Below are positions 859 to 37,906 of a stretch of DNA of 64,000 nucleotides, piece by piece; the first letter of the stretch is position 1; every line of letters starts with the position of its first letter. The translations under genes and the position numbers were made by a program. Source of the DNA: Leptospiria bacterium (lineage in GTDB: Bacteria; Spirochaetota; Leptospiria; Turneriellales; CBDBES01); assembly GCA_965262015.1 (NCBI GenBank), contig OZ253494.1, positions 1,786,720 through 1,850,719 of the forward strand. Direction: 5' to 3'. The notes below the pieces were generated by a model, which saw only the letters and a list, made by a program, of their open reading frames with translations, searched no databases and was not told where the DNA came from.

Positions 859-2418
859 ATGTCTCAATGCATCATACATTGGTGCAGTAAAGAGAGGTAC
901 CAAAATGATAAACAAGCAACAAGCAACAAGCAACAAGCAACAAGCAACAAGCAACAAGCAACAAGCAACAAGCAACAAGCAACCTATAAGTTTTCCCCTA
1001 AATTTTTAGAACGAATTGTTGATCAAGGTCAACATTCTTTCCATGTATTCAAAAGATACTTCTCGATCGGCGTATTTGCCGTATTGGTGGTAAGCACCGT
1101 CCAATGTGGTGGTGCCTCTGCCGACGCTACTACCCCTTCTGGTGGTGGTTCTGGACAGTTTGATCCTATTTGTACGAATGGTGTTGAATCAACAGAAAAG
1201 GTTTCAACCGCTAACACAGAAAAATGTGTTTCTTGCAATACTGGTTTTGAGAAAAATGGTGAACTTTGCGGAGGGTTTAATTTTATTTGTCCCAAAGGTG
1301 TGCCATTAACAGGTAAAGCTCCTGGGAAGAATATGGTAATGTGTACTTCTTGCGATAGTTATTATGCCTTAAAAAATATTGATAAAACCTGTGCCGAGGT
1401 TCAGGTTATAACGTTGGCGGGTGGTAACAAGGGGGGAGGCATGCCATGTACTCCATCTTCCTCCAGCTGTATGGATGGCATAGGTACTGCAGCACAATTT
1501 AATAATCCTGCTGGAATAGCGGTTGATAGTTCAGACAATATAATATATGTAGTAGATCGTCAGAATCATCGTATCCGAAAAATAACGCTTGCTAGTGGTA
1601 TAGGTACAGTTAGCTCATTCGCAGGTACTGGTACTTCTGGCAGTATGAATGACATGACTGGGATGCCTGGATCAGCACGATTCTGGCAGCCTGAAGGTTT
1701 AGCGGTTGATAGTTCAGGGATTGTATACGTGGCAGGTACAATCAGTAGTCTTATCCGTAAAATAACACCCCCTCCTAGTGCTACGGGCATGGGTACGGTT
1801 ACAACATTTGCAGGTGGCGGGAATCCAGCAGAATTTGTTAATCCTAATGGAGTAGCGGTTGATAGTTTAGGGATTGTATATGTGGCGGATACTGGGAACA
1901 ATCGTATCCGCAAGATAACACTTGATTATAGTGCTACGGGTATGGTTACGGTTACGGTTACAACATTTGCAGGTGGTAACAAGGGTGGAGGCATAGCATG
2001 TACTCCACCTTCCTCCAACTGTATGGATGGCATGGGTACTTCAGCACAATTTAATATTCCTGTTAGTGTAGCAGTTGATGGTTCAGGCAATGTATACGTG
2101 GCAGATCGTGGGAATCATCGTATCCGCAAAATAACGCCTGGTCGTGTGGTTACAACATTTGCAGGTGGCGGGAATCCAGCAGAATTTGATGCTCCTAATG
2201 GAGTAGCGGTTGATAGTAAAGGGTTTGTATACGTAGCAGATACGGGGAACCATCGTATCCGAAAAATAACGCCTGATGGTGTGGTTACGACATTGGCGGG
2301 TGGCAGGAATCCAGTACAATTTCACTTGCCTGAAGATGTAGCGGTTGATAAGTTAGGCAATGTATATGTGGCAGATACACAGAACGATCGTATCCGCAAG
2401 ATAGCCATACCACAATAA
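859..2418 (+). CDS. NHL-repeat six-bladed beta-propeller protein, lipoprotein-like (paralog 1); currently in frame through the heptanucleotide tract
   Basis: 519-aa ORF. The leader (NKQQATS)n-YKFSPKFLERIVDQGQHSFHVFK is followed by a hydrophobic segment ending VQC-GG. Then come Cys4 modules (DPICTNG..TEKCVSCN..GELC) and six blades of consensus GVAVDSxGNVYVADxxNHRIRKIT. C-terminus is IPQ. Confidence 0.85.
   Translation: MSQCIIHWCSKERYQNDKQATSNKQQATSNKQQATSNKQQATYKFSPKFLERIVDQGQHSFHVFKRYFSIGVFAVLVVSTVQCGGASADATTPSGGGSGQFDPICTNGVESTEKVSTANTEKCVSCNTGFEKNGELCGGFNFICPKGVPLTGKAPGKNMVMCTSCDSYYALKNIDKTCAEVQVITLAGGNKGGGMPCTPSSSSCMDGIGTAAQFNNPAGIAVDSSDNIIYVVDRQNHRIRKITLASGIGTVSSFAGTGTSGSMNDMTGMPGSARFWQPEGLAVDSSGIVYVAGTISSLIRKITPPPSATGMGTVTTFAGGGNPAEFVNPNGVAVDSLGIVYVADTGNNRIRKITLDYSATGMVTVTVTTFAGGNKGGGIACTPPSSNCMDGMGTSAQFNIPVSVAVDGSGNVYVADRGNHRIRKITPGRVVTTFAGGGNPAEFDAPNGVAVDSKGFVYVADTGNHRIRKITPDGVVTTLAGGRNPVQFHLPEDVAVDKLGNVYVADTQNDRIRKIAIPQ
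911..983 (+). repeat. heptanucleotide SSR (AACAAGC) x10 plus AAC
   Basis: Counted directly: ten perfect 7-nt units at 911-980, then AAC. Confidence 0.95.
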
Positions 2419-13304: not shown

Positions 13305-16300
13305 ATGATCCGTACTTTAAAACATATACTTCTTGTTTTTCTCACAATATTTTTATTTTTCCCTAGTTGTGGTAATGTAAGGGAATATATAGAGCAAGAG
13401 AGGAGACCTGAATCACCCTCCATTGGCAACCCCAATTTCCTAGAATTTGTAGAAGGATTTGAGGGAACATCCGAGTATAGACTCCTTGAGATTTCTGCTT
13501 TAGCAACTGTCACTATGGCAGGTAATGAAAGATATCTGTATGCGGGTGCCCGTAGCGACAATGCCATTCTAGTGTTTAATATTTCAGATGCACAATTAGA
13601 ACATATCCAAACCATAATGGATGTTGATAGCCCGGCTTACCATTTAGAAGAAGTTAATGAGCTAATTACCTTTCAGGTAAATGAACAACATTATGTCGCT
13701 ACTAGCTCTTTTAAAGAGAGTGGTTTTAATATTTTTAAGGTGGGTATAGACGGCAAGCTCACCATAATTGATTCCAGAGAAGATACAAGAGATATTAACC
13801 TTACATATACCTCATATCTGCATGTGGTAACTCATGGCACGGATACTTTTTTGATCGTGGGCAGTGGTGTACTAGAACATAGTGTCTTGGAAGGCAAGGG
13901 ATTAAGTATTTATAAATTCGAGAACGATGAAGTTACCTTAGAGAGTACAGTTCCCCTTAATAGCAACGAGCTGTTGCCACTTATAGCTGACATTCGTTCA
14001 ATACAAACTCCAAGTGGTCCAGTTATTTTTGTGGGTAGCATGGACAGGCAAGATAACAGCCTATTAACCTCTTACAGAATGGATAGTAGTGGTGCTGTTA
14101 CTACCATGACCCATATCAGCAGTATTCGACATGATGATGTAATATCCGAGGGGTCGGTAGAAACAGATGACTTTGGGTATGGAAGGTCCAATCGGTATGG
14201 TTTTTATGCTATAAGTGCCTTAGAGATATTTAGTGCAAATGAAAATGCTCCTGTTTTTTTGTTGGTTGCGGGTGATCGTATTGGTAGTGTAAGCTTGTTT
14301 GAGGTATCCAGGACGGACGGTAGCCTAAGACACATAGTTAGTATTTTATGGGATTTCGACAATGGTAGACAGGAGTTTGTATCTGGTATATTTAACCTAT
14401 TGCATATTTATTATGCAGATACCAGCTATCTATTGTTTCCTAACAACACATATTCTATGGGTATTTATCGTGCTTCAGCGAGTGGTTTAGACTATGTTAA
14501 CGTAATGTATGCTATGCCAGGTTTACACCTTCGTAATGTTCGAGCTATTGCTTCTGTGCATATTGATGGTAGATACTATGTTTTTACTGCTGGTTCTGAC
14601 CGTGGTATTGGTATGTTCAAGATGAATGGTGAAGATGATGGTGCGACCCTTATTCCCATCTTTGATCCTATCTGTACGAATGGAACCCCCTCAACGGTAA
14701 AGATTTCTACTGACAATACAGAAAAGTGTGTTTCTTGTGATAACTATTATGCCTTAAAACGTGATGAAAGCTGTACTCCAGTTATTGTTGAGACGTTGGC
14801 GGGTACTGGGACTGCAGGTTTTATGGATGGTGCAGGTAATGTAGCACAATTTTATGAGCCTACTGGGGTAGCGGTTGATAGTGTGGGTAATGTATATGTG
14901 GCAGTTAAAAATAGCCATCGTATCCGTAAGATAACGTCTGGTGGTGTGGTTACAACATTGGCGGGTACTGGGACTGCAGGTTTTATGGATGGTGCGGGTA
15001 ATGTAGCACAATTTAATGAGCCTAGAGGAGTAGCGGTTGATGGTTTAGGCAATATATATGTGGCGGATACTGATAACAATCGTATCCGTAAGATAACGCC
15101 TGGTGGTGTGGTTAGCACGTTTGCGGGTACTGGGACTGCAGGGAACATGGATGGTGCGGGTAATGTAGCACAATTTAATAATCCTTATGGAGTAGCGGTT
15201 GATGGTTTAGGCAATATATATGTAGCAGATACTGGTAACCACCATATCCGCAAAATAACGTCTGGTGGTGTGGTTAGCACGTTGGTGGGTACTGCTAGTC
15301 CTGCTGGAGTAGTGGTTGATGTTTCAGGCAATGTATATGTGACAGATAGTAATAACCATCGTATCCGCAAAATAACATTTGATTCTAGTGGTACGGGTAC
15401 GGTTACAACATTGGCGGGTACTGTAACTGCAGGTTTTATGGATGGTGCAGGTAATGTAGCACAATTTAATGAGCCTAGAGGAGTAGCGCTTGATAGTGTG
15501 GGTAATGTATATGTGGCAGATACGAATAACAATCGTATCCGCAAGATAACGCCTAGTGGTGTGGTTAGCACGTTAGCGGGTACTGGAACTCAAGGGGATA
15601 TGGATGGTGTGGGTAATATAGCACAATTTAATGAGCCTAGAGGAGTAGCGGTTGATAGTGTGGGTAATGTATATGTGACAGATACTGATAACCACCGTAT
15701 CCGTCGGCTAATCATAGAATCTCCTACTATTGATCCTATTTGTACGAATGGTACCCCTTCAACAGCAAAGGTTTTCTTTGCTAATACAGAAAAGTGTGTT
15801 TCTTGTGATAGTGGTTTTGATTTAAATGGCGAGATTTGCGGAGGGTTTGATCCTATCTGTACAAATGGAACCCCTTCAACGACAAAGGTTTTTACTGCTA
15901 ATACAGAAAAGTGTGCTTCTTGTAATAATGGTTTTGGTTTGGATGGTGAGCTTTGCAGAGAACAGTTTGATCCTATTTGTACGAATGGTGTTGCTTCGAT
16001 GGTAAAGCTTTTTACCGCTAATACAGGAAAGTGTGCTTCTTGTAATAATTATTACGCCTTAAAACGTGATGAGACCTGTACACCAATTATGGTTGAGACA
16101 TTGGCAGGTACTGGAACTGCAGGATTTATGGATGGTGCAGGTAATGTAGCACAATTTAATGTTCCTGTTGGAATAGCGGTTGATGGTTTAGGCAATGTAT
16201 ATGTGGGGGGGCGGGGTAACGGTCGTATCCGTAAGATAACGTCTGGTGGTGTGGTTAGCACATTTGCGGGTACTGGAACTCAGGGTTTTATGGATGGTGT

Positions 16301-18197
16301 GGCTAATGTAGCACAATTTAATATTCCTAGAGGAGTAGCGCTTGATGCTTCAGGTAATCTATATGTGGGGGATTTGAATAACAATCGTATCCGTAAGATA
16401 ACGTCTGGTGGTGTGGTTAGCACATTTGCGGGTACTGGAACTGCAGGTTTTATGGATGGTGCGGGTAATGTAGCACAATTTAATGGACCTCATGGAGTAG
16501 TGGTTGATGGATCAGAGTTTGTATATGTAGCGGATGGGGTAAACGATCGTATCCGTAAGATAACGCCTGGTGGTGTGGTTAGCACGTTGGCGGGTACTGG
16601 AACTCGGGGATTTATGGATGGTGCAGGTAATGTAGCACAATTTAATAATCCTAGAGGAGTAGCGGTTGATAGTTCAGGCAATGTATATGTGGCAGATAGG
16701 GGTAACAGTCGTATCCGTAAGATAACGCCTGGTGGTGTGGTTAGCACATTTGCGGGTACTGGAACTGCAGGTTTTATGGATGGTGCAGGTAATGTAGCAC
16801 AATTTCATTATCCTATAGGTATAGCGCTTGATAGTATAGGCAATATATATGTGGCAGATAATGGTAACAATCGTATCCGTAAGATAACGCCTGGTGGCAT
16901 GGTTAGCACATTAGCAGGCACTGGTATTAAGGCTGATGGTACTGCGGGAGGAGGTTTTATGGATGGTGCGGGTAATGTAGCACAATTTCATGCTCCTGGT
17001 GGAGTAGCGGTTGATAGTGTTGGCAATGTATACGTGGCAGATAGGTCGAATCATCGTATCCGTCGGCTAATTATAGAATCTCCTATTATTGATCCTATCT
17101 GTACGAATGGAACCCCTTCAACAGCAAAGGTTTTCTTTGCCAATACAGAGAAGTGTGTTTCTTGCAATAGCTTTTATACCTTAAAACGTGATAAAACCTG
17201 TGCACCAGTTTCTGTTAGCACGTTAGCAGGTACTGGTAGTTATGGTTTTATGGATGGTGCGGTTTATGTGGCAAAATTTAGTAGTCCTATAGGAGTAGCG
17301 GTTGATAGTTCAGGGTTTGTATACGTGGGAGATAATGACAACCATCGTATCCGGAAGATAACGTCTGGTGGTGTGGTTAGCACGTTGGCGGGTACTGGAA
17401 CTCAAGGTTTTATGGATGGTGCGGGTAATGTAGCACAATTTAATTTTCCTGCTGGAGTAGTGGTTGATGGTTCAGGCAATGTATATGTGGCGGATACTGA
17501 TAACAATCGTATCCGTAAGATAACGTCTGGTGGTGTGGTTAGCACGTTAGCAGGTACTGGAACTGCAGGGGATATGAATGGTGCAGGTACTGTAGCAGAA
17601 TTTCGTCAACCTAGAGAAGTAGCGGTTGATGGTTCAGACAATGTATATGTGACTGATGCTGGTAATCATCGTATCTGCAAGATAAGCACAAATTTTATGG
17701 GTGTGATTGTGGTTAGCACGTTAGCAGGTACTGGAATTGCAGGGTCTATGGATGGTGCGGGTAATGTAGCACAATTTAATGGACCTAGAGGAGTAGCGGT
17801 TGATGATTCAGGGTTTGTATATGTGACAGATAGTTCTAACGATCGTATCCGGAAGATAACGTCTGGTGGTATGGTTAGCATGTTGGCAGGTACTGGAACT
17901 ACAGGGTCTATGGATGGTGCGGGTAATGTAGCACAATTTAATTACCCTAATGGAGTAGCGGTTGATAATTCAGGTAATGTATATGTGGCAGATAATGGCA
18001 ACAATCGTATCCGTAAGATAACATCTACGGGTGTAGTTAGCACGTTGGCGGGTACTGGTCGTAGAGGATTTAGGAATGGTGCGGGTAATGTGGCAAAATT
18101 TGATGGACCTGTAGGAGTAGCGGTTGATAGTGATGGCAATGTATATGTGGCGGATCAGCACAACAATCGTATCCGCAAGATAACCATACCACAATAG
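13305..18197 (+). CDS. giant NHL-repeat lipoprotein: N-terminal ~450-aa unassigned domain plus three six-bladed NHL propellers separated by Cys4 modules
   Basis: 1630 aa. The signal peptide with lipobox-like LFFPSC-G has no SSR. I count 18 blades ending (N/D)xRIR(K/R). Blocks are joined by HRIRRLIIESPxIDPICTNG, which occurs twice. C-terminus is RIRKITIPQ. Confidence 0.85.
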   Translation: MIRTLKHILLVFLTIFLFFPSCGNVREYIEQERRPESPSIGNPNFLEFVEGFEGTSEYRLLEISALATVTMAGNERYLYAGARSDNAILVFNISDAQLEHIQTIMDVDSPAYHLEEVNELITFQVNEQHYVATSSFKESGFNIFKVGIDGKLTIIDSREDTRDINLTYTSYLHVVTHGTDTFLIVGSGVLEHSVLEGKGLSIYKFENDEVTLESTVPLNSNELLPLIADIRSIQTPSGPVIFVGSMDRQDNSLLTSYRMDSSGAVTTMTHISSIRHDDVISEGSVETDDFGYGRSNRYGFYAISALEIFSANENAPVFLLVAGDRIGSVSLFEVSRTDGSLRHIVSILWDFDNGRQEFVSGIFNLLHIYYADTSYLLFPNNTYSMGIYRASASGLDYVNVMYAMPGLHLRNVRAIASVHIDGRYYVFTAGSDRGIGMFKMNGEDDGATLIPIFDPICTNGTPSTVKISTDNTEKCVSCDNYYALKRDESCTPVIVETLAGTGTAGFMDGAGNVAQFYEPTGVAVDSVGNVYVAVKNSHRIRKITSGGVVTTLAGTGTAGFMDGAGNVAQFNEPRGVAVDGLGNIYVADTDNNRIRKITPGGVVSTFAGTGTAGNMDGAGNVAQFNNPYGVAVDGLGNIYVADTGNHHIRKITSGGVVSTLVGTASPAGVVVDVSGNVYVTDSNNHRIRKITFDSSGTGTVTTLAGTVTAGFMDGAGNVAQFNEPRGVALDSVGNVYVADTNNNRIRKITPSGVVSTLAGTGTQGDMDGVGNIAQFNEPRGVAVDSVGNVYVTDTDNHRIRRLIIESPTIDPICTNGTPSTAKVFFANTEKCVSCDSGFDLNGEICGGFDPICTNGTPSTTKVFTANTEKCASCNNGFGLDGELCREQFDPICTNGVASMVKLFTANTGKCASCNNYYALKRDETCTPIMVETLAGTGTAGFMDGAGNVAQFNVPVGIAVDGLGNVYVGGRGNGRIRKITSGGVVSTFAGTGTQGFMDGVANVAQFNIPRGVALDASGNLYVGDLNNNRIRKITSGGVVSTFAGTGTAGFMDGAGNVAQFNGPHGVVVDGSEFVYVADGVNDRIRKITPGGVVSTLAGTGTRGFMDGAGNVAQFNNPRGVAVDSSGNVYVADRGNSRIRKITPGGVVSTFAGTGTAGFMDGAGNVAQFHYPIGIALDSIGNIYVADNGNNRIRKITPGGMVSTLAGTGIKADGTAGGGFMDGAGNVAQFHAPGGVAVDSVGNVYVADRSNHRIRRLIIESPIIDPICTNGTPSTAKVFFANTEKCVSCNSFYTLKRDKTCAPVSVSTLAGTGSYGFMDGAVYVAKFSSPIGVAVDSSGFVYVGDNDNHRIRKITSGGVVSTLAGTGTQGFMDGAGNVAQFNFPAGVVVDGSGNVYVADTDNNRIRKITSGGVVSTLAGTGTAGDMNGAGTVAEFRQPREVAVDGSDNVYVTDAGNHRICKISTNFMGVIVVSTLAGTGIAGSMDGAGNVAQFNGPRGVAVDDSGFVYVTDSSNDRIRKITSGGMVSMLAGTGTTGSMDGAGNVAQFNYPNGVAVDNSGNVYVADNGNNRIRKITSTGVVSTLAGTGRRGFRNGAGNVAKFDGPVGVAVDSDGNVYVADQHNNRIRKITIPQ

Positions 18198-18250: not shown

Positions 18251-18298
18251 TTCATTTATATCTATTTTTTCTCATTGATATACATATTATATAAATTT

Positions 18299-19425
18299 AG
18301 CAAGATAATTAGGGTCAGCACAGTTGATGTAAGATATACCACCCCACGACTACTGTCGCTAGGAGTGGTTGTACTTCAGCACATACATTCCTGTGGCCAA
18401 TATTATGGGCAGAAAACCTAAGGTATATATTCTTATCCTGTTAAAGCGGTCATCATCATAGCTCTAAGGGGTAGAAAGGTTCCCTGTGTAATTCATTTCA
18501 TAGCCTGGTTTTGCCAGAAAGTTTAAGTCGATTAAAGAAGCCAACCAAGATAATTAGGGTCAGCACAGTTGATGTAAGAATACCACCCCACAACTACTGT
18601 CGCTAGGGGTTGTTGTACTTCAGCACATACATTCCTGTGGCTAACATCATGGGTAGAAAACCTAAGATATATATTCTTATCCTGTTAAAGTAGTCATCAT
18701 CACAGCTCTAAGGGGTAGAAAGGTTCCCTGTGTAATTCATTTCATAGCCTGGTCTTGCCAGAAAGTTTAAGTCGATTAAAGAAGCCAACCAAGATAATTA
18801 GGGTCAGCACAGTTGATGTAAGAATACCACCCCACAACTACTGTCGCTAGGGGTTGTTGTACTTCAGCCCATACATTCCTGTGGCCAATATTATGGGCAG
18901 AAAACCTAGGATATATCTATCCTGTTAAAGCAGTCATCATCACAGCTCTAAGGCGTAGAAAGGTTCCCTGTGTAATTCATTTCATAGCCTGGTTTTGCCA
19001 GAAAGTTTAAGTCGATTAAAGAAGCCAACCAAGATAATTAGGGTCAGCACAGTTGATGTAAGATATACCACCCCACGACTACTGTCGCTAGGGGTTGTTG
19101 TACTTCAGCACATACATTCCTGTGGCCAATATTATGGGCAGAAAACCTAGGATATATCCTGTTAAAGTAGTCATCATCACAGCTCTAAGGCGTAGAGAGG
19201 TTCCCTGTGTAATTCATTTCATAGCCTGGTTTTGCCAGAAAGTTTAAGTCGATTAAAGAAGCCAACCAAGATAATTAGGGTCAGCACAGTTGATGTAAGA
19301 ATACCACCCCACAACTACTGTCGCTAGGAGTGGTTGTACTTCAGCACATACATCCCTGTGGCCAACATCATGGGTAGAAAACCTAAGGTATATATTCTTA
19401 TCCTGTTAAAGCGGTCATCATCATA
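18299..19425. repeat. tandem array (~4.6 copies, period 238-245 bp) of the 3' end of an RND pump pseudogene
   Basis: Unit starts (caagataattagggtcagcac) are at 18301, 18546, 18790, 19030 and 19268. The reverse strand of each unit reads MMMTALT..LGFLPMMLATG / AEVQQPLATVVVG / GILTSTVLTLIILVGFFNRLKLSGKTRL* across three frames. Confidence 0.85.
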
Positions 19426-19544
19426 ACCCCAATTAAGAGTAGACCTACAACTCCGTCCGCTAGAGAAAACAAAATACCTAGTAAAATTAGAATCGTTTGT
19501 AGCCAATTATAGAAAGCAGAATAGACCTTCCAAATACATAACAT
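19426..19544 (-). pseudogene. RND pump fragment joined to the last tandem unit
   Basis: The reverse strand reads MLCIWKVYSAFYNWLQTILILLGILFSLADGVVGLLLIGV, then runs directly into MMMTALTG* of the array. The ~70 codons present at the other loci are deleted here. Confidence 0.5.
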
Positions 19545-19599: not shown

Positions 19600-19629
19600 T
19601 TGACATTTTATTCATTAAGAAGATATTCT
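19600..19629 (+). promoter_or_regulatory. sigma-70-like promoter of NHL paralog 2
   Basis: TTGACA at 19600-19605 and TATTCT at 19624-19629. The block is identical to locus 1. Confidence 0.4.
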
Positions 19630-19697
19630 ATGCCAACGAGAACTTCATGTCTCAATGCACCATAATTGGTGCAGTAAAGAGAGGTACCAAAATGATA

Positions 19698-19763
19698 AAC
19701 AAGCAACAAGCAACAAGCAACAAGCAACAAGCAACAAGCAACAAGCAACAAGCAACAAGCAAC
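19698..19763 (+). repeat. heptanucleotide SSR (AACAAGC) x9 plus AAC
   Basis: Counted directly: 63 nt at 19698-19760, then AAC. Confidence 0.95.
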
Positions 19764-19863
19764 CTATAAGTTTTTTCCTAAATTTTTAGAACGAATTGTT
19801 GATCAAGGTCAACATTCTTTCCATGTATTCAAAAGATACTTCTCGATCAGCGTATTTGCCGTA

Positions 19864-21072
19864 TTGGTGGTAAGTGCCGTCCAATGTGGAGGTGCCCCCT
19901 CTGCCGACGCTACTACCCCTTCTGATGGTGGGTCTGGACAGTTTGATCCTATTTGTCCCAATGGTGTTGCCTCAACAGAAAAGGTTTCAACCGCTAACAT
20001 AGAAAAATGTGTTTCTTGTAATATTGATTTTGAGAAAAATGGTGAACTTTGCAGACCATTCAATTTTATTTGTCCCAATGGTGTTGAATCAACAGGTAAA
20101 GCTCCTGGGAAGGGTATAGAAAAATGTACTTCTTGCGATAGTTATTATGCCTTTAAAAGTGATAAAACCTGTGCCGTGGTTATGGTTAGCACGTTGGCGG
20201 GTACTGACGCTACGGGGGATTTTAATGAGCCTGGTGGAGTAGCAGTTGATGGTGATGGGGTTGTATATGTGGCAGATACATTAAATCATCGTATCCACAA
20301 GATAACACCTGATCCTATTGATCCTAATGGTACTGGTATGGTTATCACATTGGCGGGTACTGACGCTACGGGGGATTTTAATACTCCTAGAGGAGTAGCG
20401 GTTGATAGTTCAGGCAATGTATATGTGGCAGATGGTAAGAATCATCGTATCCGCAAAATAACATTTGATCCTAGTGGTACGGGTACGGTTATCACGTTGG
20501 CGGGTACTAATGCTATGGGGGATTTTAATCAGCCTGGTGGAGTAGCGGTTGATGGTTCAGGCAATGTATATGTGGCTGATATAGTTAACCATCGTATCCG
20601 CAAAATAACATTTGATCCTAGTGGTACGGGTACGGTTATCACGTTGGCGGGTACTGATGCTATGGGGGATTTTAATCAGCCTTTTGGCGTAGCGGTTGAT
20701 AGTTCAGGAAATGTATACGTGGCTGATACTAGTAACCATCGTATCCACAAAATAACGCCTCCTTCTAGTGGTATGGTTATCACATTGGCGGGTACTGACG
20801 CTATGGGGGATTTTAATACTCCTAGAGGAGTAGCGGTTGATAGTGATGGCAATGTATATGTAGCAGATACATTCAATCATCGTATCCGCAAAATAACGCC
20901 TAGTGGTGTGATTAGCATGTTGGCGGGTACTGGGGCTATAGGGGACATGAATGGTGCGGGTGGTGATGCACAATTTCACTCTCCTAATGGAGTAGCGGTT
21001 GATAGTGATGGCAATGTATATGTAGCAGATACATTAAATCATCGTATCCGCAAAATAACCATACCACAATAA
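19864..21072 (+). CDS. NHL-repeat six-bladed propeller protein (paralog 2); body ORF out of frame with its upstream ATGs (apparent phase-OFF)
   Basis: The ORF-track start (TTG 19864) lies inside the hydrophobic segment. The same frame is open back through the SSR (..QQATYKFFPKFLERIVDQGQHSFHVFKRYFSISVFAVLVV) but contains no start codon. ATG 19647 and ATG 19692 are in another frame and stop at TAA 19767-19769. Six blades; IPQ C-terminus. Confidence 0.75.
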   Translation: MVVSAVQCGGAPSADATTPSDGGSGQFDPICPNGVASTEKVSTANIEKCVSCNIDFEKNGELCRPFNFICPNGVESTGKAPGKGIEKCTSCDSYYAFKSDKTCAVVMVSTLAGTDATGDFNEPGGVAVDGDGVVYVADTLNHRIHKITPDPIDPNGTGMVITLAGTDATGDFNTPRGVAVDSSGNVYVADGKNHRIRKITFDPSGTGTVITLAGTNAMGDFNQPGGVAVDGSGNVYVADIVNHRIRKITFDPSGTGTVITLAGTDAMGDFNQPFGVAVDSSGNVYVADTSNHRIHKITPPSSGMVITLAGTDAMGDFNTPRGVAVDSDGNVYVADTFNHRIRKITPSGVISMLAGTGAIGDMNGAGGDAQFHSPNGVAVDSDGNVYVADTLNHRIRKITIPQ

Positions 21073-21095
21073 TTGTAATCTCGTATCTTATTACA

Positions 21096-21131
21096 CCCAT
21101 CCCACGTTGGGGTGGGGTATTTAGTTTTTTT
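21096..21131 (+). terminator. Rho-independent terminator of NHL paralog 2
   Basis: The CCCATCCCA-cgt-TGGGGTGGG hairpin is followed by gtatttagttttttt. Confidence 0.7.
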
Positions 21132-21269
21132 AGCTGTTTTTTGATTATCACCATGTTTCATATAAAATTAGTTTTTCTAATTTTATATTGCAGTTATAGA
21201 CTTTTTATACGAGGCAATTAATCTCTTACCACTATTTTTTCTATGAAGTCTTGGTAAATTTGAAAGCAT

Positions 21270-21543
21270 AAGTTCCATTTTTAGACAGTTTAAGGCGTTC
21301 ATAAGCCGTTTTTCTTTAAGATACTAAAAATAAAGAGAGCAAGTAATGAAAATTCCTTTTAGCATTGCCAAAAGACAGATCAAGAATGGCTAACCAAGTT
21401 TGCACTGTCCAGAGATGATGCTGACGGTACCAAGATTCCACAGCCAATCACTTAAAAATACTTGATATTTGTACTCTTTAGAGTACGTATCCACGCAATT
21501 CCTCTGTGTTGTGTTGTGGCTGTGTTAAGCCGTTTCTCACGAG
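21270..21543 (+). mobile_element. IS30-derived MITE-like element, full-length copy (~270 bp)
   Basis: It shares its 5' end with 12470-12530 and its 3' part (ggctaaccaagtttgcactgtccagagatgatgctgac..cacttaaaaatacttgatatttgt) with 13085-13175. It abuts the RND fragment. Confidence 0.45.
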
Positions 21544-21895: not shown

Positions 21896-22003
21896 AACAA
21901 GCAACAAGCAACAAGCAACAAGCAACAAGCAACAAGCAACAAGCAACAAGCAACAAGCAACAAGCAACAAGCAACAAGCAACAAGCAACAAGCAACAAGC
22001 AAC
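21896..22003 (+). repeat. heptanucleotide SSR (AACAAGC) x15 plus AAC
   Basis: Counted directly: 105 nt at 21896-22000, then AAC. Confidence 0.95.
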
Positions 22004-22103
22004 CTATAAGTTTTTTCCTAAATTTTTAGAACGAATTGTTGATCAAGGTCAACATTCTTTCCATGTATGCAAAAGATACCTCTCGATCAGCGTATTTGCC
22101 GTA

Positions 22104-23507
22104 TTGGTGGTAAGCGTCCAATGTGGTGGTGCCTCTGCCGACGCTACTACCCCTTCTGATGGTGGGTCTGGACAGTTTGATCCTATTTGTCCCAATGGTG
22201 TTGCCTCAACAGAAAAGGTTTCAACCGCTAACACAGAAAAATGTGTTTCTTGTAATAGTGGTTTTGGTTTAGACGGTGAGATTTGTAGAGAACAGTTTGA
22301 TCCTATTTGTCCGGATGGTGTTGCCTCAACAGAAAAGGTTTTAACCGCTAACACAGAAAAATGTGTTTCTTGTAATGGTGGTTTTGAGAAAAATGGTGAA
22401 CTTTGCAGACCATTCAATTTTATTTGTCCCAATGGTGTGCCATTAACAGGTGAAGCTCCTGGGAAGAATATGGTAATGTGTACTTCTTGCGATGACTATT
22501 ATGCCTTAAAACGTGATGAAACCTGTGCCGAGGTTCAGGTTATAACGTTGGCGGGTACTGGGGCTGTAGGGGACATGAATGGTGCGGGTGGTTCAGCAAA
22601 ATTTAATGAGCCTAGTGGTGTAGCAGTTGATAGTGATGGGGTTGTATATGTGGCAGATAGTCATAACCACCGTATCCGCAAGATAACGCCTCCTTCTAAT
22701 GGAATAGGTATGGGTACGGTTAGCACGTTGGCGGGTACTAATGCTATGGGGGATTTTAATGAGCCTAGTGGAGTAGCGGTTGATAGTGATAAAAATGTAT
22801 ACGTGGCGGATCGTCGTAACCATCGTATCCAGAAGATAACGCCTAATCGTGTGGTTACAACGTTGGCGGGTACTGGAATGAAGATAGGGGAAATGGGGGG
22901 GATGGTAAAGGGAGGAGCTTTTAGTGATGACGTTGACACTAACGGGGATAGCATGCTTGATCCTGGTTCAGCACAATTTAGTCAGCCTTATGGAGTAGCG
23001 GTTGATAGTGATAAAAATGTATATGTGGCTGATATAGCTAACCATCGTATCCGGAAGATAACATCTACGGGTGTAGTTAGCACGTTGGCGGGTACTGATG
23101 CTATGGGGGATTTTAATCAGCCTTTTGGCGTAGCGGTTGATAGTTCAGGAAATGTATACGTGGCTGATACTAGTAACGAGCGTATCCGGAAGATAAGCAA
23201 TACTATGGGTATGGGTATGGGTATGGTTAAGACCTTGGCGGGTTCTGGTCTTGCTCTTACTAGAGGAGTAGCGGTTGATGGTGATGACAATGTATATGTG
23301 GTTGATGGTGGCCATCGTATCCACAAGATAACGCCTAGTGGTGTGATTAGCACGTTGGCGGGTACTAGGGCTTCAGGGGACATGAATGGTGCGGGTGGTT
23401 CAGCACAATTTTTCTCTCCTTATGGAGTAGCGGTTGATAGTGATGGCAATGTATATGTAGCAGATACATTCAACCATCGTATCCGCAAAATAACCATACC
23501 ACAATAA
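22104..23507 (+). CDS. NHL-repeat six-bladed propeller protein (paralog 3); body ORF out of frame with its upstream ATGs (apparent phase-OFF)
   Basis: The situation matches paralog 2. ATG 21845 and ATG 21890 read through the SSR into TAA 22007-22009, while the body frame starts at ACC 22002. It has three Cys4 modules, six blades and the IPQ C-terminus. Confidence 0.75.
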   Translation: MVVSVQCGGASADATTPSDGGSGQFDPICPNGVASTEKVSTANTEKCVSCNSGFGLDGEICREQFDPICPDGVASTEKVLTANTEKCVSCNGGFEKNGELCRPFNFICPNGVPLTGEAPGKNMVMCTSCDDYYALKRDETCAEVQVITLAGTGAVGDMNGAGGSAKFNEPSGVAVDSDGVVYVADSHNHRIRKITPPSNGIGMGTVSTLAGTNAMGDFNEPSGVAVDSDKNVYVADRRNHRIQKITPNRVVTTLAGTGMKIGEMGGMVKGGAFSDDVDTNGDSMLDPGSAQFSQPYGVAVDSDKNVYVADIANHRIRKITSTGVVSTLAGTDAMGDFNQPFGVAVDSSGNVYVADTSNERIRKISNTMGMGMGMVKTLAGSGLALTRGVAVDGDDNVYVVDGGHRIHKITPSGVISTLAGTRASGDMNGAGGSAQFFSPYGVAVDSDGNVYVADTFNHRIRKITIPQ

Positions 23508-24255: not shown

Positions 24256-26115
24256 GTGATGCGTTTTTTATTATTACGTTATGCAAGTCTGCCAATTCTC
24301 TTGTGTTTATGTATTATCTTGTCAGCAAATTCAATTACCTTCACAGATAGGCATGAGAAAATAATGAATCTAGGTGATAAAGTAAATTCTACCTATAATG
24401 ACTACCTTCCTTACGTCTCACCTAATGAAAATTTATTATATATGACGTCTGATCGCCCTAGTTATAAAGCCAGCCTACTGCAAGCAGATACACAATATTA
24501 TCAAAGTCGCATATGGAAAATTCCAATGCTTCATAGAGAGGGAAACTTATCCTTTGGTTATCCCACTATTTTTGATAGCAAGATCAATAATAGGATATTT
24601 AATGGTCTTGTATCTGTAAGATATATTTCGGATAGTGACTACCATATTTATTTTACTTCATTGACTAACCATATCTCAGTGAATAGCAATACTGATATTT
24701 TAGTGGCTCATGTGGTAAACAGCGAAGTTGAAACAGTTAAAGTAATTCATGAAATTAGCACAGGATTTAATGAACGCATGCCCTACATCTCTTCAGATGG
24801 CACGGCATTATTTTTTTCTTCTGACCGTCCAGGCGGTTATGGAGAGGATGATATATGGGTCTCTACTTATAACTTTACCCAAAAAACCTGGAATGTTCCT
24901 GCTAATTTGGGACAAAATGTAAATACACCTAATTCAGAGATTTCGCCGTCTATCCACCATAATAATAGTTTATTTTTCTCTTCAAATAAAGAGGGTGGTA
25001 TTGGCGGGTATGATATTTATGTTACGCAAAAAAATAAGCGTATCCCAGATCTATTACATTGGGATCAAGCAAAAAATATCAGTCTACCTTATAATTCACC
25101 ATGGGATGACGAACGGCCCGTTTTTACTCATTCAACACAATATTTTTATTTTTGCTCTAATCGTGCAGGAGGTTATGGTGGTTATGATATCTATAAAGCG
25201 AAAGTGCCTTTAATCATTAAACCCCATAAAACGATTACTTTACAGGGTCGAATTTATGATCACATTTCTCAGGTTGGAATTAAAGCAAATATTCAGGTTC
25301 TTAATTATGATACAGAAATTAATATTTCTAGCATCTTACCTCTAGGGCGCTATTCTGTAAAGCTACGTAATTCAGACAAATACCAAATTATTGTTTCTGC
25401 ACTTGGTTATCAAACACAAGTATATCATCTAGATTTTCAAGATCAAGTAAGTGATATCGATATGATTGAAAAAAATTTTCTCTTAGATACCAAGAACAAT
25501 ATGAAATCTCATAAGATGATGCAAGACAAGATGTCACCCACTCATAAGATGATGCAAGACAAGATGTCACCCACTCATAAGATGATGCAAGACAAGATGT
25601 CACCCACTCATAAGATGATGCAAGATAAGATGTCACCCACTCATAAGATGATGCAAGATAAGATGTCACCCACTCATAAGATGATGCAAGATAAGATGTC
25701 ACCCACTCATAAGATGATGCAAGATAAGATGTCACCCACTCATAAGATGATGATACATGATTCCATGCATTCGGACAGTCAACCTATGGCTATTATCCTC
25801 TTTAAACGTCATATATATAATAAGCTTATCCCAAACGAAGAAGCAAAAATCCGGACTCTATTTACTAGGTGGAAACAAAATCCACAGCACTCATTCCAAT
25901 TAAGGGGACATTCTGCTCGCAAAGAAAAAAAAGATAGAAAGAAAGACCTGTCTAAGAAACGAGCTATGTATGTAAAAGAACGCTTATTATTGTATGACAT
26001 TCCTGAAGAAAGAATTCAGCTCAACTGGTATGCAGATAAGAGGCCTGCCATGGTCGAGAACACAATAAAAAAAAGTGAGCTTAATCAGCGAGTAGAGATA
26101 TTTTTACTAAAGTAA
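24256..26115 (+). CDS. OmpA-family envelope protein with TolB-like (PD40) repeats, a Met/His-rich tandem repeat and a C-terminal OmpA domain
   Basis: 619 aa with a signal peptide. Repeated Y(F)SSDRPGGYG..DIY(W) motifs indicate PD40-type blades. The C-terminus LRGHSA..LSKKRAMYVKERLL..NQRVEIFLL is an OmpA_C-like peptidoglycan-binding motif. Confidence 0.75.
   Translation: MMRFLLLRYASLPILLCLCIILSANSITFTDRHEKIMNLGDKVNSTYNDYLPYVSPNENLLYMTSDRPSYKASLLQADTQYYQSRIWKIPMLHREGNLSFGYPTIFDSKINNRIFNGLVSVRYISDSDYHIYFTSLTNHISVNSNTDILVAHVVNSEVETVKVIHEISTGFNERMPYISSDGTALFFSSDRPGGYGEDDIWVSTYNFTQKTWNVPANLGQNVNTPNSEISPSIHHNNSLFFSSNKEGGIGGYDIYVTQKNKRIPDLLHWDQAKNISLPYNSPWDDERPVFTHSTQYFYFCSNRAGGYGGYDIYKAKVPLIIKPHKTITLQGRIYDHISQVGIKANIQVLNYDTEINISSILPLGRYSVKLRNSDKYQIIVSALGYQTQVYHLDFQDQVSDIDMIEKNFLLDTKNNMKSHKMMQDKMSPTHKMMQDKMSPTHKMMQDKMSPTHKMMQDKMSPTHKMMQDKMSPTHKMMQDKMSPTHKMMQDKMSPTHKMMIHDSMHSDSQPMAIILFKRHIYNKLIPNEEAKIRTLFTRWKQNPQHSFQLRGHSARKEKKDRKKDLSKKRAMYVKERLLLYDIPEERIQLNWYADKRPAMVENTIKKSELNQRVEIFLLK
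25510..25752 (+). repeat. 33-bp tandem repeat, 7 perfect-length copies plus a partial one, encoding (HKMMQDKMSPT)n
   Basis: Counted directly. Copies 1-3 carry GAC-AAG and copies 4-7 carry GAT-AAG (a synonymous C/T difference). The partial eighth copy diverges to HKMMIHDSMHS. Confidence 0.95.
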
Positions 26116-31869: not shown

Positions 31870-32712
31870 TTATCCGATCAGTCGCAAAATCGTTTGTGAT
31901 TGATTATTTGACTTGGATAACATCGCCATACCACTCTGTAACAATATTTGTCGTGTTGTGAGGTTTACCATCTCCTCGGCCATGTCAGCATCACGAATAC
32001 GCGATTCAGATGCCTGCACGTTCTCATAGGCTGTCATTAAACCTCTAGCAACATTCTCTAAGCGATTTTGGTAAGCTCCTAAATCAGCTCTTTGCTTCAG
32101 TAGTTTTTCCAAACTACTATCTATTACTCCAATTAATTCATTTGCTCTTGTAATTGTAGAAATTGAAGCAATGGTGTTGTTGCTTTTTAAGTTGAATGCT
32201 GTTGCCGTCATTGTAGCAATATATACCCTTTCACGTTGATACATATTTGGCCCCATGTGAAACCACATCGAAGCACGTCTAGACGTTCTAGAGAAATCAC
32301 CTTGAAACAATTGGAAGCGGTTAAATTCCGCTTGGGAAGCTATTCTATCTATTTCGTCAATTAATTGAGATACTTCAATCTGCATTAATTGGCGATCTTC
32401 ACTAGTGTAGATCCCATTTGCTGCTTGGATAGACAAAACACGCATTCTCTGGAATACATTTGTCACTTGTTCAAGATAACCTTCGGCAGTTTGTACAAAA
32501 CTCATACCATCTTCAGTATTACGTTCAGCCTGCCTTAATCCTAAAATTTGTGTTTTGAGTTTTTCTGCAACTGCTAAGCCCGAGGCATCATCTCCTGCAC
32601 GGGTTATTCTCATGCCCGAAGATAACTTTCTTGTGGTACTATCTATGTCCCACTGGTTAAACTTCAAAACTCTATGAGTGTTAATTGCACTCATATTGTG
32701 ATTAATAATCAT
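31870..32712 (-). CDS. flaB: flagellar filament core protein FlaB (flagellin)
   Basis: The preferred start is [11 protein letters not shown], 8 nt after AAGGAG; the ORF-track GTG at 32721 abuts the RBS. Conserved flagellin termini: [16 protein letters not shown]...Q..GL.QA.RN..DG.S..QTAEG and ..[13 protein letters not shown]...T..QIL.QSG.AML. Confidence 0.9.
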
Positions 32713-32786
32713 CGTAGACACTCCTTGTCATTTATTTGGTCTTCTTTGATACAATTTATATCTCAGATTCCCAAGAAAATTCACGT

Positions 32787-32832
32787 GAAAAAAAGTTATA
32801 CGGGATAGTACGAACAAATATCCCGTATAACT
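32787..32832 (-). terminator. strong hairpin plus T7, terminator-like, between the two flaB genes
   Basis: The minus strand reads AGTTATACGGGATA-tttgttcgtac-TATCCCGTATAACT (perfect 14-bp stem) followed by TTTTTTT. Confidence 0.65.
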
Positions 32833-33076
32833 ACTTAGTTTGGAAGGAAGATCAATAAATTTTATTAATCCGAAATTACACTTAATCATGTGATATCTCT
32901 TGGGAATCTGAACTATGTAACATTTACATGTTCTGTATACCAAGACAAAGAATTTAGGATAGCAAGTCAGCTAACCTATCTACATTTTCAAATAGCATAG
33001 AAACATAAGCCGTTATTTTACTACGGCCTATATCCCTTTGTACTCTTACTTTCTTTCGTTATTGGTCATATCAATA

Positions 33077-33922
33077 CTATCTCAATAGTTGTAGAACTGT
33101 TTGAGATTGTGCATTGGCCTGTGCTACCATAGCTGTACCACTTTGAACAAGAATCTGATTTCTAGTGAAATCACTCATCTCTTCCGCCATATCTACGTCT
33201 CTGATACGAGATTCAGAAGCCTGAATATTCTCGTAAGCACTCATTAGCCCTTTTGAGGCGTACTCCATACGATTGTAATAGGCTCCTAAATTTGCCCTCT
33301 CTTTGTTGACAATAAAGAGAGCTTCATCCATTAAACCAATTACTTCATTAGATTTTGTTGCTGTCGACAGGCTGATATTTGTTCCATCGGCGTTTTTCAT
33401 TTTCAATGCATTCGCCGTCATAGTTTTAACATATATCCTTTCACGTTGATGTGTATTAGCTCCAATGTGTAACCACATCGAAGTGTTTCTTGAGGTTCTA
33501 GAGAAATCACCTTGAAATAATTTCAAGGTATTAAATTCTGCCACAGAAGCTATTCTATCTACTTCATCAATTAACTGTGATACCTCCACTTGTATCATCA
33601 AACGGTCTTCTTGCGTATAGATACCATTAGAACTTTGTACAGACAAAGTTCTAATCCTATGTACCATCGCAGCAGTTTGGTGCAGATAACCTTCAGCAGT
33701 TTGTATAAAACTCATCCCATCTTCTGCGTTTCTTTCCGCTTGACGTAAACCTTTGATCTGCGCACGCATCTTTTCGGATACAGCTAAGCCAGAAGCATCA
33801 TCCCCTGCCTTATTGATACGCATACCACTTGAAAGTTTTTCCATGTTATGGTTTACATCCCAGTGCTTAAACTTGAGCACACGATTAGAATTAATCGCTG
33901 CCATGTTATGGTTTATGATCAT
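33077..33922 (-). CDS. flaB: flagellar filament core protein FlaB (flagellin), second paralog
   Basis: 281 aa. Starts [18 protein letters not shown] with RBS AAGGAGGAG 7 nt upstream. Same conserved N- and C-terminal flagellin domains. Confidence 0.9.
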
Positions 33923-37067: not shown

Positions 37068-37219
37068 TGATTCTGGACAGTGTAAACAGGGCTAGCCATT
37101 TTGATCTGTCTTTTTCACTATGGTAAAAAAGAATTTTCATGGGTTGCTCTCTTTATTTTTAGTATTTTAAGAAAACGGCTTATGAATACCTTAAACTATC
37201 CAAAAATGGAACCTACGCT
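37068..37219 (-). mobile_element. IS30-derived MITE-like element, truncated copy flanking the short NHL gene
   Basis: ctgattctggacagtgtaaacagggctagccattttgatctgtc...aaacggcttatgaataccttaaactatcc is the reverse complement of the element at 21270-21543, covering the 5' end through the mid part. Confidence 0.4.
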
Positions 37220-37317
37220 TTCAAATTTTCTAAGACTTTATAGAAACAGTCTATAACTGCAATATAAAATTAGAGAAACTAATTTTATATGAAACATGGT
37301 GATAATTAAAAAACAGC

Positions 37318-37356
37318 TAAAAAAAACTAAATACCCACCCCATACGTGGGATGGGT
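37318..37356 (-). terminator. Rho-independent terminator of the short NHL gene
   Basis: The minus strand reads CCCATCCCA-cgta-TGGGGTGGG followed by tatttagttttttt. This is the same hairpin as at the other NHL loci. Confidence 0.65.
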
Positions 37357-37378
37357 ATAATAAGATACAAGATTACAA

Positions 37379-37906
37379 TTATCGTGGTATAATTATTTTA
37401 CGGATACGATTGTTGTCCGCATCCGCCACATATACATTGTCATTACTATCAACTGCTACTCCTGTAGGATTTTTAAATTGTGCATCTATACTGGTGCCAT
37501 CTTTGCAGGACTCTCCGCCTGTTGCGGGGGTAGTAGTGCCACATTCAGTAGCAGTATTCCCCCCAGCGTTACCACCTGCGAACGTTATAACCTTAACCAC
37601 GGCACAGGTTTCATCACTTTTTTTTAAGACATAATCGCTATGGCAAGAAACACATTTTTCTTTATTCGTAGAAGCTTTTTCTGTTGAGGAAATACCATTG
37701 TTACAGGTATACTGGGGACTGTTGGGGGGGGGGCTTACAGCAGTAGGGGTTCCATCTCTACATTGAATGCTCACCATTAACATAGCAAAGACACTGATCA
37801 ATAAATGTCCTTTGAATACATGGAAAGAATATTGGCATTGGTCAGCGATCTGTTCTAAAAAGGTTGTAATGTATTTATAGATTTGTTGGTTATATGTCAT
37901 TTCCAA
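37379..37906 (-). CDS. short NHL-family protein: leader, one Cys4 module and a single terminal NHL blade
   Basis: 175 aa. MEMTYNQQIYKYITTFLEQIADQCQYSFHVFKGHLLISVFAMLMVSIQC is homologous to the leader of the SSR paralogs but has no heptamer tract. One blade is present (GVAVDSNDNVYVADADNNRIRKIIIPR*). Confidence 0.7.
   Translation of the reverse strand: MEMTYNQQIYKYITTFLEQIADQCQYSFHVFKGHLLISVFAMLMVSIQCRDGTPTAVSPPPNSPQYTCNNGISSTEKASTNKEKCVSCHSDYVLKKSDETCAVVKVITFAGGNAGGNTATECGTTTPATGGESCKDGTSIDAQFKNPTGVAVDSNDNVYVADADNNRIRKIIIPR

Follow-up and report, generated by a model that had tools for sequence, protein, structure and literature searches.

A heptanucleotide repeat holds an NHL-propeller gene of a spirochaete-like bacterium out of frame: probable translational phase variation caught in the OFF state

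Introduction

Among described systems, the one closest in logic to the locus reported here is the opa family of Neisseria, in which each genome carries several diverse paralogous loci, as is the case here (PMC13183285). Each opa locus has a non-triplet repeat in the 5' part of the coding region, within or adjacent to the signal sequence, and the copy number of this repeat sets the reading frame; the gene ends are conserved while the middle is variable (PMC13183285). The locus described below shares these features, but its unit is the heptamer AACAAGC rather than CTCTT, and its tract is placed in an N-terminal extension ahead of the hydrophobic core rather than within that core. The protein is an NHL beta-propeller with a cysteine after the signal peptide, whereas Opa is an eight-stranded beta-barrel, and the host belongs to a spirochaete-like lineage, with no sequence homology between the two systems. 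Membership in the Opa family was rejected on the NHL propeller body and the AACAAGC unit, which leaves opa as an analogue in mechanism only.

Closest in repeat type is neuO, the O-acetyltransferase gene of prophage CUS-3 in Escherichia coli K1, whose 5' coding region contains heptanucleotide repeats of the sequence 5'-AAGACTC-3' (PMC13001214). As at our locus, the full-length neuO protein is read in one of three length classes, and the repeats are translated as heptad peptides (PMC13001214). Repeat number covers a wide range among genomes, and 93% of cells had 21 repeats, with 20 or 22 in the remainder (PMC13001214). In contrast to the family of predicted exported proteins considered here, neuO, with its AAGACTC unit, is present once and encodes a cytoplasmic enzyme. 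Its ON class also differs, with n divisible by 3, whereas here it is n = 2 mod 3 when read from the ATG that follows a Shine-Dalgarno-like sequence (SD-ATG).

In Haemophilus influenzae, loci of the lic1/lic2A type have start codons in two frames 5' of the repeat, giving strong, weak and off states. Our locus has a similar arrangement, with an ATG at 19692 that has a Shine-Dalgarno (SD) sequence, a predicted start at ATG 19655 that has none, and a closed third frame; the lic genes, however, carry tetranucleotide repeats and encode enzymes of LPS biosynthesis. The tpr homopolymers of Treponema pallidum sit upstream of genes and act on transcription. Here, in contrast, the repeat is a heptamer within the coding sequence, and it is the reading frame that it affects. 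The tpr poly-G tracts offer an example from spirochaetes of putative surface protein genes controlled by repeat length (PMC7864442). With respect to fold, the propeller resembles the sensor domain of Mycobacterium tuberculosis PknD (Foldseek TM 0.85-0.88 to 1rwi/1rwl, 34-35% identity), although the PknD propeller is attached to a kinase and is not subject to phase variation.

Here we describe three tract-bearing loci (1, 2 and 3) in a stretch of 64,000 nucleotides, referred to as the window, and focus on locus 2, which contains NHL gene 2. This locus is a homologue of none of opa, neuO and lic1; the mechanism that it would use is a known one, and none new is revealed. In the portions of the literature that our search returned, nothing was specific to this heptamer or to phase variation of NHL proteins, and the matches on slipped-strand mispairing in Leptospira were general reviews.

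The repeat tract and the frame rule at locus 2

Locus 2 contains a perfect tract of nine AACAAGC units (Table 1). TRF reported 9.4 copies with 100% matches for this tract, and 100% matches likewise for the tracts of loci 1 and 3. A three-unit AACAAGC probe had 28 matches in the window and 0 in 100 shuffles (chance expectation 0). The heptamer contains no stop in any of six frames, and 3/3 forward frames of the nine-unit tract are stop-free, encoding permutations of NKQQATS.

A preliminary description of this DNA, made from the letters and their open reading frames, had placed ATG 19647 and ATG 19692 in one frame that passes through the 63-nt tract and closes with AAC CTA TAA at 19761-19769, and had found the NHL body open in the +1 frame from ACC 19762. 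These coordinates were confirmed. The two ATGs are 45 nt apart; their frame is translated as MSQCTIIGAVKRGTKMINKQQATS... across the tract and reads MSQCTIIGAVKRGTK-MINKQQATS... from one start to the other and beyond. The body frame extends over 436 codons to TAA 21070-21072 with 0 internal stops, while over this stretch the two alternative frames have 24 and 61 stops. It was equally correct that this frame is closed by a TAA directly before the tract, and that its earliest ATG, GTG or TTG is TTG 19864, within the hydrophobic segment. The inventory of ATGs was right for 19647 and 19692 but had overlooked a third-frame ATG at 19655.

Locus 2 was rebuilt in silico with 5 to 16 units. At n = 2 mod 3 (8, 11 and 14 units), the body is fused to SD-ATG 19692 in products of 457, 464 and 471 aa, in agreement with the unit numbers predicted earlier by arithmetic. 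At n = 1 mod 3 (7, 10 and 13 units), the body is instead fused to ATG 19655, with products of 467, 474 and 481 aa. At n = 0 mod 3 (6, 9, 12 and 15 units), no ATG gives a long ORF. From the SD-ATG, eight units thus give a product of 457 aa, nine units one of 25 aa and ten units one of 34 aa; at nine units both ATG-bearing frames meet stops 7-27 nt past the tract.

Because ATG 19655 occupies the third frame, nine units is the sole phase that is off from every ATG, and one unit gained or lost therefore opens an ORF. The earlier claim that loss of a single unit would switch the gene on holds for the eight-unit allele read from the SD-ATG, but it was incomplete, since a one-unit gain also opens an ORF, from ATG 19655. 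Locus 2 has the repeat anatomy of translational phase variation: a non-triplet unit, located between start and body, that permits a full-length product at some unit numbers only.

Start codon and expression signals

ATG 19692 is the probable start of NHL gene 2, as judged from the SD-like sequence before it and from alignment: the aligned Met is present, either as the first residue or further in, in all tract-less sister copies and in P0252, a tract-bearing copy that is in frame. ATG 19655 would be a weak start at best because it lacks a ribosome-binding site. The preliminary description had listed an intact promoter, ribosome-binding site, leader, six-blade body and terminator. A counterpart of each is present, the promoter and terminator as promoter-like and terminator-like elements, and the promoter-like element is identical in all three tract-bearing loci of the window, but the promoter match does not rise above chance, as a scan over the region found 6 such elements against 6.8 expected.

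The region immediately 3' of the tract gives independent information on where translation begins. Between locus 2 and the tract-less paralog 4, the leader and signal peptide have a dN of 0.21 and a dS of 1.8 (saturated), and dN/dS is 0.12. On this ratio, the leader between the tract and the hydrophobic core is protein-coding and under purifying selection. Since the leader is conserved as protein, translation must begin upstream of the tract. This runs counter to independent initiation downstream of the tract, which the preliminary description had itself named as a finding that would speak against its reading.

Table 1. Positions of the features discussed at locus 2, its sister loci and paralog 4 (window coordinates)
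Feature	Position	Strand	Remarks
Promoter-like TTGACA (19600-19605), 16 or 18 nt spacer, GATATT or TATTCT	19600-19629	+	putative function
Upstream ATG	19647-19649	+	no Shine-Dalgarno sequence; runs into TAA 19767-19769
ATG in third frame	19655-19657	+	no Shine-Dalgarno sequence; crosses tract (MHHNWCSKERYQNDKQATS...)
Shine-Dalgarno-like AAGAGAGG	19677-19684	+	7 nt 5' of ATG 19692; identical in loci 1 and 3
ATG, probable start codon of NHL gene 2	19692-19694	+	Shine-Dalgarno-like sequence present; aligned Met in sister copies
TAA in body frame directly before tract	19696-19698	+	66 nt from 19762, same frame
Perfect tract (AACAAGC)x9, locus 2	19698-19760	+	proposed slippage switch; 6 nt past ATG 19692
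TAA closing frame of ATG 19692 and ATG 19647	19767-19769	+	7 nt past tract; OFF product 25 aa from ATG 19692
TAG closing frame of ATG 19655	19787-19789	+	reached at 9 units
Leader (TYKFFPKFLERIVDQGQHSFHVFKRYF), hydrophobic signal segment (SISVFAVLVVSAV), Q-C	19762-19887	+	Cys codon 19885-19887, then GG
Linker and two Cys-rich ~40-aa modules (FDPICPNG...EKCxSC...C)	19888-20178	+	
NHL beta-propeller body and stop (TAA 21070-21072)	20179-21072	+	six blades
Terminator-like hairpin (21096-21116) and T-rich tail	21096-21125	+	also kept after other NHL genes
Locus 1 tract	911-980	+	10 units; body 982-2418, out of frame with SD-ATG 905
Locus 3 tract	21896-22000	+	15 units, same closed phase as locus 2; body 22002-23507
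Tract-less paralog 4 (MTYNQQIYKYITTFLEQIADQCQYSFHVFK...)	37379-37900	-	leader translated from Met at SD-ATG position

The encoded protein

The body of NHL gene 2 matched the Pfam NHL family (PF01436) with 6 repeats (E = 1.5e-56). In the AF2 (AlphaFold) model, residues 140-436 have a pLDDT above 90 and form a six-bladed propeller, and a Foldseek search with the model returned Pizza6 designs and the PknD sensor domain at TM 0.87-0.93, with 0.9 for Pizza6 and 0.87 for the PknD structure 1rwi. The body is predicted on this basis to be a closed six-bladed NHL propeller. No Pfam family matched across the N-terminal 136 residues, which comprise the leader, the signal peptide and the Cys-rich modules.

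The hydrophobic segment is followed by Q-C-G-G. We compared this site with the lipobox [LVI][ASTVI][GAS]C, or a looser spirochaetal form of it, with an invariant Cys. The Cys is invariant in nine paralogs, with Gly-rich linkers next to it, and one paralog has ISC. The invariant Cys and the Gly-rich linker suggest that the product is a lipoprotein, an assignment that stays provisional because Gln at -1 is not canonical.

Sister loci in the window

Loci 1, 2 and 3 are nearly identical around the tract. From the -35 hexamer to ATGATA they match at 97-98 of 99 positions, and over the 140 columns 3' of the tract they differ by 3-6 mismatches, with post-tract indels in multiples of three; the unit numbers are nevertheless 10, 9 and 15. 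Unit number thus varies among paralogous loci of one genome, including the copies P0249 and P0252 outside this trio. In none of the three window loci does the body share a frame with the SD-ATG. At locus 1 (10 units), which is also off by the SD-ATG rule, a 519-aa ORF begins at ATG 859, without a ribosome-binding site, and is the one given in the public annotation (P0121). ATG 859 is in frame with the body at 10 units because of a 1-nt insertion near 876, 5' of the SD; as a result of this extra base, P0121 is annotated from an ATG that lacks a ribosome-binding site while SD-ATG 905 is out of frame. For locus 3, the public gene call (P0111) begins at GTG 22107 within the signal peptide ('MVSVQCGG...').

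The bodies of the three loci are intact. They have in common the leader, the signal peptide, the Cys-rich modules and a C-terminal ...NHRIRKI(T/A)IPQ, and they diverge in the propeller. Differences between the copies all keep the frame, and internal stops occur in 0 copies. Among tract-bearing bodies dN/dS is 0.7-0.9, a figure that is inflated by misalignment of repeats and that could reflect either diversifying selection or relaxed constraint. At their 3' side, the small NHL genes keep a hairpin and ~200 nt at ~79-80% identity (2419-2650, 21073-21300 and, on the minus strand, 37189-37378). Since the 5' and 3' flanks of family members are conserved and the middle is variable, this layout could support recombination between copies.

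Paralog 4 represents the tract-less form, its start reading ATG-TYNQQI-YKYITTFLEQIADQCQYSFHVFKGHLLISVFAMLMVSIQC. The ORF, which is open, contains a run of ten C (37724-37733, minus strand, coding SPPP) just past its signal peptide. Elsewhere in the genome, the 61-aa sister copy P0287 terminates directly after 'SSPPPQ'. The poly-C run in this leader subfamily suggests a second, homopolymer-based phase switch, to judge by the sequences of these two copies.

The family elsewhere in the genome

To find relatives of the N-terminal region, its first 140 residues were used as query in an exhaustive HMMER search of 1.84 billion representatives. Every strong match that was checked came from the 1,922,353-bp contig that holds the window. 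A word-index protein search returned mostly generic NHL proteins when the whole protein was used and one sister copy when the N-terminal module was used. The family has at least 13 members, and at least five loci carry an AACAAGC tract.

Two tract-bearing copies outside the window are annotated through their tracts. P0252 (MLNKQQATSNKQQATSNKQQFYRSFPKFL...) is in frame from the SD-ATG. In P0249 (MHHNWCSKERYQNDKQATS...ATYKSFPKFL), with a tract of 10 units, reading starts at the upstream ATG, and the annotation begins at the equivalent of ATG 19655 (MHHNWCSKERYQND...). The five known tract-bearing copies therefore comprise one strongly ON, two on from the upstream ATG, and two OFF. Two further members, P0251 and P0126, have annotated starts within the signal peptide, like locus 3, as would be expected of OFF copies. 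These truncated calls, from GTG or TTG codons in the signal peptide, would arise because the tract is in an OFF phase. All five of the tract-less copies P0247, P0248, P0281, P0267 and P0287 have a Met at the SD-ATG position, and an alignment of paralogs shows the tract inserted between MLN and KQ.

NHL propellers take up an unusually large share of the coding capacity of this 1.92-Mb genome. Upstream of locus 2, the interval 13305-18197 encodes a 1630-aa lipoprotein-type protein (signal ...FLFFPSCGN) with 15 NHL repeats and the same Cys-rich modules, and a paralog of it, P0250 (1328 aa), lies elsewhere in the genome.

A probable switch and its alternatives

We consider it likely that locus 2 undergoes translational phase variation by slipped-strand mispairing and was caught in the OFF state. 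NHL gene 2 would belong to a multi-copy family whose propeller products are exported and probably lipid-anchored, and in which a hypermutable heptanucleotide repeat decides whether each copy is translated. Initiation would take place at ATG 19692 via its SD sequence, and the ribosome would then pass through (AACAAGC)n, read as NKQQATS permutations, before reaching the conserved leader, the signal peptide and the propeller. Mispairing at replication would add or drop one unit, reversibly and at some rate, and each such event would rotate the frame because 7 is not a multiple of 3. The full protein would be made from the SD-ATG at n = 2 mod 3; at n = 1 mod 3 only ATG 19655, with no SD, would be in frame, giving weak expression at best; and at n = 0 mod 3, including the present nine units, the gene would be off. 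If the loci switch independently, the population would be mixed for the propeller variants presumably displayed at the surface, with whatever benefit such a mixture brings.

The preliminary description had favoured a reversible OFF switch over decay, and this is the best-supported reading: the only lesion lies in a perfect non-triplet repeat, and the gene is otherwise intact. It is backed further by the differing unit numbers of the sister loci, by the in-frame state of P0252 and by the constraint on the leader. That the SD-ATG frame is missed at 3/3 window loci agrees with random switching, but with loss of use too. We regard it as unlikely that locus 2 is a dead or dying copy, in which nine units would be a fixed frameshift in a recently inactivated, redundant paralog and the tract would be accidental. 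Such a history would agree with loci 2 and 3 being fully OFF and locus 1 being off with respect to its SD-ATG, with the large and redundant family (at least 13 members) and with a body dN/dS of 0.7-0.9. However, the phase of the tract is the sole lesion: the 436-codon body has acquired no second one, whereas its alternative frames are full of stops (24 and 61), and the promoter-like site, SD, leader and terminator are conserved. Locus 2 was for these reasons not classed as a pseudogene. The tracts are moreover perfect, although interruptions would be expected had slippage and selection ceased, and the five tract-bearing copies are spread over all three phases, as for independent switching.

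An explanation of a different kind is that the unit count in the assembly is a consensus only, taken from a mixed population or altered by collapse or expansion during assembly or polishing. Phase-variable tracts are indeed heterogeneous in real samples, as documented for neuO (PMC13001214), and the record is one 1.92-Mb contig for which the sequencing technology is not stated. We nonetheless think it quite improbable that this accounts for the nine units, as a 63-nt tract is below almost any read length, whole-unit errors are atypical of sequencing, and three tracts of three exact lengths sit between unique flanks in a clean assembly; a mixed sample would in any case be compatible with the switch rather than opposed to it. 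It is highly improbable that the gene is expressed at nine units with no change in the DNA, either by a +1 frameshift at CUA-UAA (19764-19769) or by non-canonical initiation downstream. Moving by +1 at CUA UAA would bring the ribosome exactly into the body frame (UAU AAG), a formal resemblance to prfB. The prfB type, however, has a slippery CUU-U at a poor-context in-frame stop with an SD-like stimulator 3 nt upstream, whereas the site here, AAC CUA UAA G, is not the CUU-UGA motif, offers no codon for re-pairing (a P-site tRNA-Leu is unable to re-pair on UAU) and has no SD-like element in the ...AGCAAC directly upstream. A frameshift at locus 2 would also leave the sister loci, in other phases, unexplained. 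Downstream initiation finds some support in the pipelines, which call sister genes from GTG or TTG within the signal peptide. At locus 2, though, TTG 19864 or GTG 19867 would lose the leader and half of the hydrophobic core and so yield a non-exported propeller, and the leader is under purifying selection.

If slipped-strand switching operates at these loci, a large family of surface proteins built on NHL propellers would be subject to variation in a spirochaete-like bacterium that is uncultured or poorly known and has a reduced genome. This would extend the slippage logic of Neisseria, Haemophilus and E. coli K1 to a lineage with no described case; the mechanism is a textbook one, but such switching would be new both to the lineage and to the protein family, which is large. 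Repeat length at the NHL loci would then serve as a marker of population heterogeneity in samples. Annotation is affected as well, with pipelines mis-calling these genes as truncated ORFs from within the signal peptide or from fortuitous upstream ATGs.

We also put forward, tentatively and as something possible rather than probable, that a small-genome, deep-branching spirochaete near Leptospirales runs an Opa-like combinatorial display of NHL propellers. At least five tract loci would each have a strong (SD-ATG), a weak (upstream ATG) and an off level; a second leader subfamily appears to be switched by poly-C within the coding region; and the conserved 5' and 3' flanks could permit cassette exchange. 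Such a display would be the first repeat-driven surface-variation system described for the lineage, and would point to a host- or phage-exposed lifestyle.

The organism and other features of the window

The window has a G+C content of 36%, and at 90% identity every window or family protein tested was a singleton. For RF1, no other sequence exceeds 61% identity; the closest relative with a name is a 'Leptospirales bacterium' MAG, at 54%. We tentatively place the host as a deep-branching spirochaete near Leptospirales. Two flagellins of 281-283 aa are encoded at 31870-33922, and in their short length they resemble spirochaetal core flagellins.

Metagenome scans with the start codon plus tract, and with the leader DNA, gave no match. 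A scan of genome contigs with a generic pattern, a four-unit AACAAGC tract, located tracts of at least four units at no fewer than 117 loci in unrelated genomes, including Treponema, Brachyspira, Chryseobacterium and Bacteroidales; among the loci listed (L001-L117), none was related to the window. An open frame of at least 150 codons follows the tract in the sense direction at 19 of 69 testable loci among the matches listed, and in the antisense direction at 9 of 69. One locus, in a Spirochaetaceae MAG (L055, 2345-2395), has an ATG close to the tract on one side and a lipoprotein signal peptide on the other.

The interval from the giant NHL gene to the locus 2 promoter-like site is occupied by a tandem array of about five ~240-nt units that are 93% alike (18286-19432). 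This array contains no ORF of 80 aa or more and has no copy elsewhere in the window, and an Rfam search of the array and the leader region gave no match. A divergent promoter-like site is located at 19533-19506 on the minus strand, with nothing conserved downstream. Beyond locus 3, the ORF at 24256-26115 encodes a PorE-like outer-membrane protein with PD40 and OmpA domains; it contains a 33-nt in-frame repeat (25508-25752; 7.4 copies, 99% identical) that could form a length-variable surface segment.
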